Source: a virus | UHGV virus genome: UHGV-2190786 | Strand: one strand, 5' to 3' | Length of the DNA: 11,954 nucleotides | Shown here: one piece after another, positions 1-8,987 of the stretch | How positions within the stretch are numbered: the stretch's first letter is position 1 | Layout: each line of letters starts with the position of its first letter | Notes under the pieces: generated by a model | What the model saw: the letters and a program-made list of their open reading frames with translations, nothing else | The model's database searches: none | What the model was told of the DNA's origin: nothing | Made by a program: the position numbers and the translations under genes

Positions 1-984
1 CGCTTACGTGGGCGTTATGCGTGGTCAAAAGACGGAACTGATTCATGGTTTATCACTGACCTTGAAGACGAATCGCACCCTGACCGATACAGTGCACAAT
101 ATCGCGCAGAATCGCAGCCGGACGGCATCATCGGTATCGGGACATGGCGAGACTTCATCGTCTGCTTTGGTTCATCGACGATTGAGTATTTTTCCCTGAC
201 TGGTGCAACCACCGTTGGTGCTGCTTTGTATGTCGCCCAGCCATCGCTGATGGTGCAGAAAGGCATTGCCGGAACCTACTGCAAAACGCCGTTTGCTGAC
301 TCGTATGCGTTCATCAGCAATCCGGCAACAGGTGCGCCGTCTGTGTATATCATCGGCTCCGGTCAGGTATCACCAATCGCCAGCGCGAGCATTGAGAAAA
401 TACTACGCTCCTACACTGCTGATGAACTGGCTGATGGTGTGATGGAATCGCTGCGATTTGATGCGCATGAACTGCTGATTATCCATCTTCCGCGCCATGT
501 TCTGGTGTACGACGCATCTTCAAGCGCCAATGGTCCGCAATGGTGTGTGCTGAAAACAGGACTGTATGATGATGTGTACCGCGCTATCGACTTCATTTAC
601 GAAGGCAATCAGATAACGTGCGGCGATAAGCTGGAGTCCGTGACCGGGAAATTGCAGTTCGATATCAGCAGCCAGTACAACAAGCAACAGGAACACCTGC
701 TGTTTACTCCACTGTTCAAAGCGGATAACGCCAGAGTGTTCGACCTTGAGGTTGAATCGTCAACTGGCGTTGCGCAGTACGCCGACCGCCTGTTCCTCTC
801 TGCAACTACTGACGGAATCAATTACGGGAGTGAGCAGATGATTGAGCAGAATGAACCGTTCGTTTACGACAAGCGTGTTTTGTGGAAGCGTGTCGGGCGC
901 ATCAGGAAAAACATTGGCTTCAAATTGCGCGTTATCACGAAGTCACCTGTCACTCTTTCTGGCTGCCAGATAAGGATTGAGTAA
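1..984 (+). CDS. Tail hub / tail accessory factor, gp10-like; 3' portion only, 5' end lies upstream of the window
   Basis: Frame 1 is open from base 1 to the TAA at 982-984 with no stop. The six-frame track only begins at an internal TTG (226). The stop overlaps the ATG of the next gene (TAATG). Identity is assigned from position immediately upstream of the tail needle gene and from a size consistent with a roughly 470-aa gp10; I do not recall the gp10 sequence itself. Confidence 0.6.
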
Positions 985-1832
985 TGGCTGATTCGAATCT
1001 CAATGTGCCGGTAATCATCCAAGCTACGCGGCTCGATACATCAGTCCTTCCACGCAATATCTTCTCGCAGTCGTATCTGCTTTACGTTATTGCACAGGGC
1101 GCTGATGTTGGTAATGTGGCTAACAAGGCCAACGAGGCCGGACAGGGCGCTTATGATGCACAAGTCAGGAACAATGAGCAGGATGTGATTCTGGTCGATC
1201 ACGAAATTCGACTGGCATCGGCTGAAGCGAAGATACAGGACCACGAAACAAGGATCACTAACGCAGAAGCGGCGATAGTCGGCCTTGATTCACGATTAAC
1301 GACAGCAGAAAACGATATTGAGTATCTGACTGATGAAGTTGTCGCCATTCAAAACACGCTTTCAGACCATGAAACGCGCATTGATGCTCTGGAGTATGCA
1401 ACCACGCGCAAGAAGTCAGAGGTTGTTTACTCTGGCGTATCTGTAACCATCCCGACAGCGCCGACCAACCTTGTTAGCCTGCTGAAAACGCTCACGCCGT
1501 CATCCGGATCGTTGGCACCATTCTTCGACACCGTTAACAACAAGATGGTTGTGTTCAACGAGAACAAAACCCTGTTCTTCAAGCTGTCGATCGTCGGGAC
1601 GTGGCCCAGCGGAACCTCCAACAGGTCAATGCAGCTAACCTTTTCCGGCTCTGTTCCTGACACTCTGGTAAGCAGTCGCAACTCGGCGACAACAACCGAT
1701 AACCTCTTGTTAGCTACGTTCTTCAGCGTGGATAAAGACGGCTTTCTTGCCACAAATGGCAGCACGTTAACCATTCAGTCAAATGGTGCGGCGTTTACTG
1801 CCACAACCATCAAAATCATTGCGGAGCAGTGA
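984..1832 (+). CDS. Tail needle (P22 gp26-like) with C-terminal knob domain (Sf6-type), 282 aa
   Basis: The N-terminus [39 protein letters not shown]...[12 protein letters not shown] closely matches my recollection of the P22 gp26 N-terminal hub-binding region. A heptad-like coiled-coil stretch follows (DHETRIT...DHETRID). The C-terminal ~140 aa are Ser/Thr-rich and non-coiled, as in the knobbed 282-aa Sf6-type needle rather than the 233-aa P22 needle. Confidence 0.85.
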
Positions 1833-2311
1833 TGGAAATAAAGCTCATCGATAATCCGGTGAAGCTTGCAGAATTCCTCAACAACCCGGCAAACACGGGA
1901 AATATCGTAGACAGTGGAGACAAATACTACATCAAGCCTGATGCGGTATACCTCGGCATCTACGAAGGACTGATGCTGGTCGGAGTGCATGAAGTGCGTA
2001 ACTTCTGGCATAGCGTTGTTGAATGCCATGCGGTGTACGACCCCGGATTCCGTGGCGAATATGCACTGCAAGGGCATCGATTATTCTGCAAATGGCTTCT
2101 CGAAAACTCACCATTCCTTAACAGCATCACTATGGTTCCTGACACCACGAAATACGGACGGGCAATTATCCGTTTGCTTGGCGCTACCCGTGTTGGTCAC
2201 CTTGATGATGCTTATACCAGCAATGGAAAGCCTGTGGGCATCACGATTTATCAGTTACCGCGCTCAAAATACGAGGAGCTAACGAATGTTAATTTTCCAG
2301 ATTGCCAATAA
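1832..2311 (+). CDS. gp14-like protein (by position in the P22 late operon), about 159 aa
   Basis: The ORF starts at an ATG that overlaps the tail needle stop (TGATG at 1830-1834); the track begins one codon earlier at a GTG (1829). Size and position match P22 gene 14. Product is assigned by synteny only. Confidence 0.65.
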   Translation: MEIKLIDNPVKLAEFLNNPANTGNIVDSGDKYYIKPDAVYLGIYEGLMLVGVHEVRNFWHSVVECHAVYDPGFRGEYALQGHRLFCKWLLENSPFLNSITMVPDTTKYGRAIIRLLGATRVGHLDDAYTSNGKPVGITIYQLPRSKYEELTNVNFPDCQ

Positions 2312-2939
2312 GCACCTCAGCAAAGCTGTTTACTGCAAAGGTGGCAGTGATGGCGGTTCAAAGGCACAGGCACGCGCAACTGAAAAGGGCATCGAATTGC
2401 AGCGTGAAATGTGGCAGACGAACATGCAAAACCTTGCACCGTTCACGCCACTCGCTCAGCAGTACGTATCACAGTTGCAAAATCTTTCCTCTCTTCAGGG
2501 GCAAGGTCAGGCGCTTAACCAGTATTACAACTCCCAGCAGTACAAAGACCTTGCAGGTCAGGCGCGTTACCAGAGTCTGGCAGCAGCAGAGGCAACGGGT
2601 GGATTAGGCTCTACAGCAACAGGAAACCAGTTAGCAGCAATCGCACCTACACTCGGTCAAAACTGGCTGTCAGGTCAGATGAACAACTACAACAATCTGG
2701 CAAATATCGGCCTTGGCGCTCTTACAGGTCAGGCAAACGCCGGGCAGAACTATGCCAACAACGTCAGCCAATTGTATCAACAGCAGGCGGCAGCATCTGC
2801 GGCTAATGCGAATAAACCATCAGGATTTCAGAGCGCCCTGGGTGGAGCGGCAGCAGGTGCAGCTGCAGGTACTGCAATCATGCCTGGTTGGGGTACAGCA
2901 ATTGGTGCTGGCGTCGGTCTTCTTGGTTCACTTTTTTAA
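2286..2939 (+). CDS. Ejection (DNA-injection) protein, gp7-like, 217 aa
   Basis: ATG at 2286 is preceded by GAGGAG about 7 nt upstream and overlaps the end of the previous gene by 26 nt. The protein is Gln/Asn/Gly/Ala-rich low complexity with a hydrophobic glycine-zipper C-terminus (GGAAAGAAAGTAIMPGWGTAIGAGVGLLGSLF). Position and size match P22 gene 7. Confidence 0.75.
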   Translation: MLIFQIANKHLSKAVYCKGGSDGGSKAQARATEKGIELQREMWQTNMQNLAPFTPLAQQYVSQLQNLSSLQGQGQALNQYYNSQQYKDLAGQARYQSLAAAEATGGLGSTATGNQLAAIAPTLGQNWLSGQMNNYNNLANIGLGALTGQANAGQNYANNVSQLYQQQAAASAANANKPSGFQSALGGAAAGAAAGTAIMPGWGTAIGAGVGLLGSLF

Positions 2940-2951
2940 TGGAGGTGTCTC

Positions 2952-4364
2952 TTGGCTACATGGCAACAGGCTGGTAATTCAGGCGCGCTTCTTGCCGGGT
3001 TAGGCGGCATGAACTCCAACGCTCCAAGAGCAAGTGATGCAGACGCCACGCTTGCATACATTCGACAGAATAACGAGATGGAGCGTTCAGGACGTAATAA
3101 CGTTGGCTTGCAGGCTTTGCAGGGCATTTCATCTGTCATGGATATGTATAAGCAGATGGATCAGCAGAAGCGACAGCAAGAGTTTCAGCAGGCTTATGCT
3201 GATGCATATACATCTGGTGACCGCGATGCAATGCGAAAACTGGCATCACAGTATCCTGAGCAGTTTGACGCCGTAAGAAACGGCATGAAATTTGTCGATG
3301 AAGACCAGCGTTCCACTGTCGGTACACTGGCAGCAAGTGCCAGACTCGCAGCTTCATCTCCAGAAGCCATGATGTCATGGTTGCAGAACAACTCATCTGA
3401 GCTTACTCGTGCCGGAGTAGACCCTCTGGATGTGGCGAAAATGTATCAGCAAAATCCACAAGGTTTCACAGAGTTTGTTGATCACCTTGGGATGGCTGCG
3501 CTTGGTCCGATTGATTACTTCAATGTTCAGGACAAGATGGCTGGTCGGGATATTGAGCGTGGCGAGTTGGCAGAGACAATCCGCAGCAATCAGGCTGGAG
3601 AAGTACTTCAGGCGAGAGGGCAAAATCTTTCCTATCAGTCAGCAATGACTGGGCACAACATCGCAGCGCAACGCTTGGCTCTGGATCAGCAAGAGTTCGG
3701 GTTTAAGATGCAGCAAGCGCAGGAAAAGGCTCAGCAGTTGATTAGCGAAGCACCTAAGCTGTCAGTAAACATGGAAAAAGGCATCGAGACGGCTGTAAAC
3801 AATGCTACAGCATCATCAAACTCAGCCAATTCTATGAGTGCGCTTGCTCAACAGTTCAGAGCAGAAAAACCAACGACAGGTTTGTTCGGTAACGCACAGA
3901 ACATGTTCGCAAAACTTACCGGAAGCGATACGACATTGCGTGATTTGCGCATTCGCCAAAATGCCCTTGTTAACAGTCAGGTTCTTAAATTCCTACCTCC
4001 CGGACCAGCAACGGATAAAGACGTTGAGATCGTTCGACAGGGTGCGCCAACTGACATGGATAACCCTGAGACGGTCGCAAGATGGCTTGATGCAATGGCA
4101 AACCTTGAGCGACGAAACGCGCAGTTTAATGAGTTTAAAGCCGAGTGGATGAGCGCGAATGGCAACCCTGGACAATCGCGTAATGGCGGTCAGATATTGG
4201 GGTTGGATGTTAAAAAAGGTGAATCATTGGGGAGTGCCGTTAAGCGGTATATGTCAATGAATACTGACGCAGCGCCAGCACAAGATTCGACACCTTCAGG
4301 TGAACCACGGAATCAGGTTGGATCATATACCTCAAAATCAGGCATTCAATTTACGGTGGAATGA
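2952..4364 (+). CDS. Ejection (DNA-injection) protein, gp20-like, 470 aa
   Basis: A long ORF whose first in-frame start is TTG at 2952, 6 nt after a GGAGG Shine-Dalgarno (2941-2945). The next in-frame ATG is 19 codons downstream. Size (470 aa) and position match P22 gp20 (471 aa). Confidence 0.8.
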
Positions 4365-6778: not shown

Positions 6779-7045
6779 CTATGTTTCCTTTTTATTATTG
6801 CTATACATGGTCTTAAGCGTTTCAAAAACCATTTTCTTAACCATATCAGATTGTTGTTCTGCCATACGCTCTGCATCGTCAATGTAAACTGGTGCAGAGC
6901 TTTGTTTAGCCAATGATTCTTCAATCGCTGCAATTATCTCTGAGTTCAGCGACCTGTTATTCATCTTCGCACGCTGCTTAATTTTCGCGTGGAGTTCATG
7001 CGAAAGTCTCAAGTGAAACTGCGCCTCGTCGTATTTGCTGTACAT
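6779..7045 (-). CDS. mnt: Mnt-like ribbon-helix-helix repressor (Arc/MetJ superfamily), about 88 aa
   Basis: The stretch RAKMNNRSLNSEIIAAIEESLAK...DDAERMAEQQSDMVKKMVFETLKTMY aligns with my recollection of P22 Mnt (RAEANGRSMNSELLQIVQDALSK...NDAERLADEQSELVKKMVFDTLKDLY). The start at ATG 7045-7043 (MYSKYDEAQFHL...) matches the P22 Mnt N-terminus; the upstream ATG at 7078 would give 99 aa and cannot be excluded. Confidence 0.85.
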   Translation of the reverse strand: MYSKYDEAQFHLRLSHELHAKIKQRAKMNNRSLNSEIIAAIEESLAKQSSAPVYIDDAERMAEQQSDMVKKMVFETLKTMYSNNKKET

Positions 7046-7118
7046 CCTTGATGCCTCACCAGTTGGGTGGAATGGCATCGTAACCTACTGGATAAATACT
7101 CAATAGTACCATTTCGGT

Positions 7119-7166: not shown

Positions 7167-8987
7167 ATGTCAGATATCACCGCAAATGTTGTGGTAAGCA
7201 TGCCTTCGCAACTCTTCACTATGGCTCGTTCTTTTAAAGCCGTAGCTAATGGAAAGATTTATATCGGAAAAATTGACACTGATCCGGTAAATACTGAAAA
7301 CCAGATCCAGGTTTATGTGGAGAACGAAGACGGCTCTCATGTTCCTGTATCGCAACCAATCATCATTAACGCTGCTGGTTACCCGGTATATAACGGACAG
7401 ATTGCCAAGTTCGTAACTGTGCAAGGCCATTCTATGGCTGTTTATGATGCATATGGGGCGCAGCAGTTCTATTTTCCTAATGTGTTGAAGTACGACCCTG
7501 ACCAGGGAATTATCAGGTTAAAAGAAGAAATTGCGAAAGATGATGGAGAGAAATATATCGGAATATGCCCTGACGTTTCTACGCTCAGAACAATTGAGCC
7601 ATCATTCGTCGGGCAAAATATAACTGTTCGTGGATACTACTCTGACACACCCGGGCTTGGGGGAGGAACGTTTATAGCCTTTTCCAGTTCTGAAGCTGAC
7701 GATGGTGTGAATATTTTTGTTACCCCCGGCGGTAAGCGATGGAAGAGAGCAGGAAGCCACATCGATATTCCGGTAGAGAACGGTGGCATGATGACATCAT
7801 GTACGGCTGAGCAAAACAGTGAAGCCTTTGAACGCCTGACTGCATGCCTTCCATATGAAGGAGGTACGCTCAGACTCAATGGATTTTACGATATTAAGTA
7901 TGGCGCTATCGTGCCTCCACGTGTCACGCTGGAGGGGTGCGGTATGGATTCCTGTGGATTAATTAAAACAGGTAACGATATTAAAACCGTTCCGGATCGC
8001 ATGTGGCAGGGTGTACCACACAGCTTCTCCAAAGACTTTATTGTTGCGGTAGATATGGATAGCGATACGTCTGGTAGTCCAAATGGTCCAGTAGGTAATC
8101 AAGTCAGAAGCACCAGAATAATTGGATTGAGCTTAATATGCTCATCCATCACTCCATGCGCATTCGGGATCTATTCCAGTATCAGTTATGACGTCAGGCT
8201 ACAAGATTTATACGTAAAAAACGTAGGTATTGGATATCGTACCAGCGATAGTTGGCTGCAGTCATGGTCAACTATAACAGTTGAGAATGTTAATAAGGGA
8301 TTTTTTGTTGAAAATGGAGGTACATCATTCAATATATCAAATACTTATGTTAAAAATGCGTCATCAATTGCTTATCATTTTGTTAATATAACATACAGTA
8401 CGCTGACATGTACGGCAGCAGATTATATTAATGGCTCTGCTTATGCCTTTTTGGGCTGCACAAGTATAGTTATGAATGGGTGTGGGGCAGAGAATATAAC
8501 TGGTAGTGCTTTTGAGTGCAACCAGTCAAGAGTTACCATTAACTCTTTTAGAGGAGTGAAGTTTTTTGATGCTGGTAATATAGCTTGCATATTTACACAG
8601 TGTGCAATAGTAATGAGCGCTTGTTTTCTCCCTGAATTTGATGGTTCTTTTTCAAGTAAGTATTTTGAGCTTAATGATTCAACGATCAATCTGAACAATA
8701 CCGTTTGCCCGGATGCATCGAGAGTAAAATGGGGCGAGACAGCAGTGTCATGGATAAATTTCTCAAACTATGGCGGAAACTATACAATCTGGGGCGTTAC
8801 TGCTTGGACCGCAACAGGGTTCCTCGTAAATGGAATTGCTCATGTCTATGCGGAATTACCTCCTGATTCCTCTGTCACACAGTTTAGCCAAGGTGCTAGA
8901 TGGGAGCTGATAAGACCCACAGCTGGGAATAACTATAAATGGATTCATACCGGCGGAGGAGTCTGGAGAGCGGCAGGTAGTATATAA
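7167..8987 (+). CDS. Tailspike protein: P22 gp9-like N-terminal head-binding domain fused to a divergent beta-helix receptor-binding domain, 606 aa
   Basis: The start is ATG 7167, preceded by GGAG at 7156-7159. The N-terminus [42 protein letters not shown]...[13 protein letters not shown]...NVLKYDPDQ matches the P22 tailspike head-binding domain as I recall it. The remainder has a repetitive, Cys-rich N-x-S/T pattern typical of a parallel beta-helix and is not P22-like. The track's extension back to 7119 has no ribosome-binding site and no homology. Confidence 0.9.

Follow-up and report, generated by a model that had tools for sequence, protein, structure and literature searches.

The tail needles of P22-like phages have been characterized for Salmonella phage P22, for Sf6 and for the E. 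coli prophage HS1. The N-terminus of the needle has the role of a plug in the tail hub (Leavitt 2013, PMC3741392; Li 2022), and P22 gene 26 mutants lose their DNA. The shafts of Sf6 and P22 comprise 11 heptads each, while the shaft of HS1 is five heptads longer and 67% identical to that of Sf6 and its knob is 99% identical (Leavitt 2013, PMC3741392). The crystal structure of the Sf6 gp9 knob, 3RWN, is credited in PMC3741392 and in Li 2022 to Bhardwaj et al. 2011. The same paper describes the knob fold as a TNF-like jellyroll and gives 4.9% as the maximum divergence within the clade of knobs from P22-like phages (Leavitt 2013, PMC3741392).

Exchanging the P22 tip for the Sf6 or the HS1 knob left the host specificity unchanged, several alterations of the needle tip slowed K+ release and DNA delivery, and no effect was evident for mutations that should prevent the binding of glutamate (Leavitt et al. 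2013, PMC3741392). OmpA and OmpC are named as secondary receptors of Sf6, and the host-range mutations map to the tailspike and not to the knob (Li 2022; PMC9400499). According to the summary given in PMC9400499, in cryo-ET of P22 the needle touches the cell surface and is lost before the ejection proteins build the channel.

In this work we analyzed a needle gene in the UHGV virus genome UHGV-2190786. The window, by which we mean the whole stretch of DNA that was analyzed, is 11,954 nucleotides long. Judged by its sequence, the gene is an ordinary Sf6-type knobbed tail needle gene of the P22-family phages, and we place at about 97% the probability that its product is the tail needle of a P22-like (Lederbergvirus) E. 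coli prophage, of the Sf6/HS1 knobbed type already characterized. The knobbed needle is a known feature that is already named correctly in the public annotation, and the gene is a textbook case of it. Nothing in the comparisons of sequence, domains, fold or context contradicts this explanation. The coordinates of the needle gene, of its parts and of its neighbors are collected in Table 1.

Table 1. Features of the needle gene and of the surrounding window (positions are those of the window)
Feature	Position	Strand	Basis
Tail hub gene, 3' part (P22 gp10 / Sf6 gp8 homolog), putative docking partner of the needle	226-984	+	PF11134 Phage_stabilise, E 3.7e-156
Complete tail needle gene (Sf6 gene 9 / P22 gene 26 homolog)	984-1832	+	ORF; 85% identity to Sf6 gp9
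N-terminal domain, aa 1-60, putative plug of the gp10 hub	984-1163	+	98% identity to Sf6 gp9; P22 gp26 structure matches
Predicted trimeric coiled-coil shaft, aa ~61-140, ~11 heptads	1164-1403	+	Heptad periodicity, predicted helix
Divergent central shaft cassette, aa 73-126, between the DHE motifs of aa 72 and aa 128	1200-1361	+	Comparison with Sf6
Sf6-type C-terminal knob, aa 141-282, TNF-like jellyroll	1404-1829	+	3RWN, 4K6B, PF16532, Foldseek
P22 gp14-like gene, DUF2824	1832-2311	+	PF11039, E 2e-65
gp7	2286-2939	+	Pfam/PHROG
gp20	2952-4364	+	Pfam/PHROG
gp16-like DNA transfer protein, 615 aa	4361-6208	+	Full-length PHROG 770 match
Small lipoprotein-like ORF, 162-173 aa	6223-6744, probable start 6711	-	PHROG 6067 (function unknown), E 4e-109
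Arc/Mnt-type repressor (Arc fold, Mnt C-terminal)	6779-7078	-	Pfam/PHROG; immediately before the tailspike gene, in the opposite direction
Tailspike, P22-type head-binding domain	7119/7167-8987	+	Sf6 gp14 structure 7SG7
O-antigen modification cluster gtrC, gtrB, gtrA	9032-11954	-	Pfam/PHROG
DUF6056 gtrC-type serotype-specific transferase	9032 to ~10668	-	O-antigen modification cluster
gtrB / GT2	10663-11595	-	O-antigen modification cluster
gtrA	11592-11954	-	O-antigen modification cluster

The needle gene and its product

The needle gene runs from an ATG to a TGA and encodes 282 amino acids followed by the stop codon; frame and sequences agree with what had been quoted in an earlier reading of this DNA made from its letters and reading frames (the sequence-only reading). 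Its ATG shares bases with the stop codon of the upstream gp10-homolog gene (TAATG), and its TGA shares bases with the ATG at 1832 that is likely the start of the next gene (TGATG); in Sf6 the needle gene is coupled just as tightly to its neighbors. The product matches PHROG 1030 (tail needle knob) over its full length (E 1.3e-132); its membership in the needle family is observed directly. It is found in NCBI as the exact protein, under several accessions, with the name "tail needle knob protein [Escherichia coli]". NCBIfam had no match to the needle, nor to three further proteins of the window. Of 5426 complete E. coli genomes, 315 contain matches that span at least 80% of the gene; the matches listed bear the annotation "tail needle knob protein", and the best chromosomal match to the whole gene has 97.4% nucleotide identity.

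The first part of the protein shows the architecture of the P22 gp26 family, that is, a hub-binding N-terminal domain of ~60 residues followed by a heptad coiled-coil shaft. A search of all PDB sequences matched aa 3-64 to the N-terminal fragment of P22 gp26 in the P22 tail structure (8EAP_B, E 2.6e-26) and aa 1-144 to needle structures of P22 gp26 (2POH, 3C9I, 4ZKP; E ~1e-43). The heptad periodicity is clear over residues 58-141, where the two core positions (4/3 spacing) are hydrophobic in 10/12 and 8/12 cases, and the shaft has the same length as that of Sf6, with which it aligns free of gaps.

The sequence-only reading had pointed to an internal near-repeat in the coiled coil, DHETRIT (aa 86) and DHETRID (aa 128). 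Both are present, but they are not peculiar to this protein. The distance between the two, 42 aa, corresponds to exactly 6 heptads, and their coding DNA differs at 7/21 nt; a DNA repeat search at the two sites detected none. Because Sf6 gp9 contains four DHE/NHE-x-RI motifs (aa 72, 86, 100 and 128), and the P22 and HK620 needles contain related DHE-type motifs in the multiple alignment, the DHETRI near-repeat is an ordinary heptad motif of the whole needle family and no special duplication. An origin of the pair by duplication of DNA was accordingly rejected, the heptad-multiple spacing of the four Sf6 motifs being a further ground.

The center of the shaft, the cassette in Table 1, is the only mildly individual feature of this needle. 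Compared with Sf6 it has 33% amino acid and 49% nucleotide identity, versus 96-97% nucleotide identity on both flanks, and its breakpoints, at ~aa 72 and at aa 126/127, are sharp and adjoin the DHE motifs. A donor was sought among the needles of Sf6, Gally, P22 and HK620 and none was close: the best local alignments with these four cover the cassette partially, reach at most ~58% identity and in several cases are shifted in register. When aa 73-99 are aligned locally to Sf6, for example, the best alignment is displaced by two heptads, which shows how repetitive the shaft is. Among phage records the cassette was found only in OR844601, an unannotated E. coli O26 prophage fragment. Needles that combine a conserved plug and knob with a divergent shaft have been documented before, and we treat the cassette as ordinary mosaicism.

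After the shaft the protein departs from P22 gp26. The PDB matches to P22 gp26 chains stop at ~aa 144-153, and homology to the tip of P22 and HK620 gp26 (~90 C-terminal residues, P22 aa 141-233) was not found in the multiple alignment, which after ~aa 140 has scattered identities only. In the search of all PDB sequences, aa 131-282 matched the knobs of Sf6 (3RWN, E 2.9e-89) and HS1 (4K6B, E 8.4e-89) with 97.4% identity, and the profile PF16532 (Phage_tail_NK, Sf6-type phage tail needle knob) was matched with a score of 358.9 bits (cutoff 27), the match spanning aa 109-282 of the protein and positions 2-175 of the 175 in the profile. These matches, along with PHROG 1030, bear out the proposal of the sequence-only reading that an Sf6-type knob takes the place of the P22 tip on a P22-like N-terminus and coiled coil, and they make the domain boundaries directly visible. 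The C-terminal domain of ~140 aa had also been described as rich in Ser and Thr and non-heptad; Ser and Thr together indeed make up 28.9% of the last 142 aa versus 13.8% of the coil, and beta strands are predicted in it by a model of low confidence.

The knob differs from that of Sf6 by four conservative substitutions only (T176S, A212S, I241L and S270A), which is 4/143 residues (2.8%) and within the limit of the P22-like-phage knob clade. The Ala270 that results from the last of these is the state found in HS1, and S270A is without structural effect (PMC3741392). All residues reported to contact the buried L-glutamate (E146, K200, S248 and D250 in Sf6 numbering) can be seen to be kept, as is the distal triad S231-R232-N233, for a total of 7/7 residues identical to Sf6; the list of contacts is that of PMC3741392, and we subtracted 35 from its HS1 numbering to obtain the Sf6 numbering.

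A structure prediction of the knob had been put forward in the sequence-only reading as a check. The single-sequence AF2 model of the full protein has one long helix (aa 42-140) and then changes to beta strands (aa 146-281), with no continued coiled coil; it is a monomer model of low confidence (mean pLDDT 56, with 70-89 over aa 71-130 and ~45-65 in the knob) that serves as a check of secondary structure and fold class only. The only strong matches of this model in a Foldseek search of the PDB were 3RWN and 4K6B (E ~4e-18, TM 0.68 on the target); the Foldseek score is partly based on sequence. The weaker ones include TNF (Eiger) and C1q-family structures, so the Foldseek matches agree with the published TNF-like jellyroll. 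The fold is settled by the 97% identity to two crystal structures, to which AF2 and Foldseek add little.

Genomic neighborhood of the needle gene

The order of the genes in the window, which is observed directly, is that of a standard P22-like late operon: gp10 C-terminus, needle, gp14, gp7, gp20, gp16-like, Mnt, tailspike and gtrCBA. The needle gene thus has the position typical of the P22 gp26 family, right after a hub gene of the gp10 type and ahead of the genes for gp14, gp7, gp20 and gp16. The hub gene runs past the left end of the window, and its PF11134 match covers profile positions 218-469 of 469. The gp16-like protein was assigned by its PHROG match and had no Pfam or NCBIfam match. 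In the 3' third of its gene (from ~5200) the GC content drops from ~49% to ~44%, a hint of a further mosaic junction.

A small reading frame with a signal peptide and a lipobox (LLVGC) follows the gp16-like gene, on the other strand, and lies before the Mnt-type repressor gene. It had no Pfam or NCBIfam match, and in a syntenic E. coli prophage it is annotated as "hypothetical protein". Its product could be an envelope or exclusion factor encoded by the prophage; P22 has sieA at roughly the equivalent position. Between the repressor gene and the tailspike gene no ORFs for an arc or ant partner were found, so the locus looks like a reduced immI region.

The start listed for the tailspike frame, 7119, probably lies 16 codons upstream of the true one; we prefer the ATG at 7167 (MSDITANVV, the usual P22-family start). 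Counted from this ATG, the first ~124 residues are the head-binding domain, with a match to Sf6 gp14 (7SG7) of E 2e-63. For the receptor-binding body no close solved relative was found (best match 6EU4, E 2.6e-6; best PHROG 8280), so its O-antigen specificity is not evident. In the cluster for O-antigen modification, a gtrC start at MKINTN, directly after the gtrB stop, is more likely than the listed start at 10912, since the latter overlaps gtrB. Over gtrC the GC content falls to ~35%, compared with ~50% for the virion genes; this points to a moron that was acquired separately.

Alternative explanations

The gene might be a remnant in a defective prophage, no longer used for making virions. 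The part that is visible is the right-hand 12 kb of the prophage only, and some E. coli genomes contain P22-like prophage fragments that include the needle gene (Leavitt 2013, PMC3741392). However, the needle frame is intact and of full length, the neighboring late genes in the window are all intact ORFs with strong family matches, and its start and stop codons share bases with those of the adjacent genes as in Sf6, all of which makes a remnant quite unlikely. A functionally distinct needle, in which the cassette, the four knob substitutions or both would give an ejection trigger, a stability or a surface partner different from that of Sf6, we regard as very improbable. The low identity of aa 73-126 to Sf6 (33%), the lack of a close counterpart among the shafts of P22, HK620 and Gally, and the altered kinetics of K+ release that follow changes of the needle tip (Leavitt 2013, PMC3741392) speak for it; against it, the shaft keeps its length and its heptad register (282 aa, gap-free versus Sf6), all known ligand-contacting residues are kept, the S270A substitution is the HS1 state and has no structural effect, knob swaps left the host specificity unchanged, and a divergent shaft joined to a near-invariant knob is the documented norm of the family (67% and 99% in HS1; PMC3741392).

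We therefore keep to an Sf6/HS1-type needle, within which the cassette may be an uncharacterized allele. The position of its breakpoints at the DHE(x)RI motifs of aa 72 and aa 128 suggests that these motifs could act as short homology 'joints' for the exchange of shafts while plug and knob stay constant, and the allele might tune stability or release. We consider this picture unlikely, though conceivable.

Proposed mode of action

By homology with Sf6, HS1 and P22, three chains would assemble into one fiber; the near-identity to trimeric crystal structures and the heptad pattern likewise point to a homotrimer. The N-terminal ~60 residues would enter the gp10 tail hub and, as a plug, close the channel through which the DNA exits, residues ~61-140 would form a trimeric coiled-coil shaft projecting past the tailspikes, and residues 141-282 would fold into a trimeric knob of the TNF-like jellyroll type, which would be the distal tip and would bury one L-glutamate per subunit interface. 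On infection the needle would contact the outer membrane and then be lost, which would open the channel for the ejection proteins and the DNA; the ejection proteins would be the homologs of gp7, gp20 and gp16, whose genes lie directly downstream of the needle region. The tip would affect the rate of DNA delivery and not the choice of host. The published work with Sf6, HS1 and P22 is our basis for the trimer, for the role as a plug, for the binding of glutamate and for the influence on the delivery rate.

The importance of the gene is small, as it is one more copy of a phage part known both structurally and genetically. Its use is that the domains can be mapped cleanly and that the window can be recognized as the late-operon end of a P22-like E. 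coli prophage. As the knob hardly varies within the clade, the sequence does not help with the field's question of what the knob contacts and why it binds glutamate. The sequence-only reading had called the cell-surface feature contacted by the knob unknown, and this still stands, since the secondary receptors of Sf6 named in Li 2022 and PMC9400499 are OmpA and OmpC and the host-range mutations map to the tailspike. The knob swap that was proposed there had already been published in 2013 (Leavitt et al., PMC3741392).

Comparison with known needles

Homologs of the knob domain occur in proteins of T4-like, Vi01-like and Vibrio/Aeromonas phages (for example RB43, Vi01, Margaery), whose C-terminal knob domain is 40-54% identical to aa ~139-268. 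These proteins are without the P22-type N-terminal plug and shaft and belong to unrelated virion types; similar 'outside' knob matches, of unknown function, were described by Leavitt 2013 (PMC3741392). The gp26 needles of Salmonella phage P22 and coliphage HK620 (2POH, 3C9I, 4ZKP) are homologous in plug and shaft, with 59-63% identity over the first 137-148 aa, but at 233 aa they end in a P22-type tip, in whose place the needle described here has a jellyroll knob of 142 aa.

HS1, an E. coli prophage, shares its host with the prophage described here, and its knob (4K6B; Leavitt et al. 2013, PMC3741392) is essentially identical. Its needle, however, has 16 heptads and 317 aa (PMC3741392) versus 11 heptads and 282 aa here, and in the alignment the needle of phage Gally, also of 317 aa, has a similarly longer shaft. 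Another close counterpart is gp9 of Sf6, which has the same length of 282 aa and the same three-part architecture and aligns without gaps at 85% identity over 282 aa (98% over aa 1-60, 33% over aa 73-126 and 97% over aa 127-282). The two differ in host, which is Shigella flexneri for Sf6 and E. coli here, and in the surrounding prophage, in which the body of the tailspike is a different one here and a gtrABC cluster is present. In Sf6 the needle gene likewise lies between a gp10-type hub gene and a gp14-type gene, and the gene order of the window is that of Sf6 and of the E. coli P22-like argW prophages, which are integrated at a tRNA-Arg gene beside yfdC.
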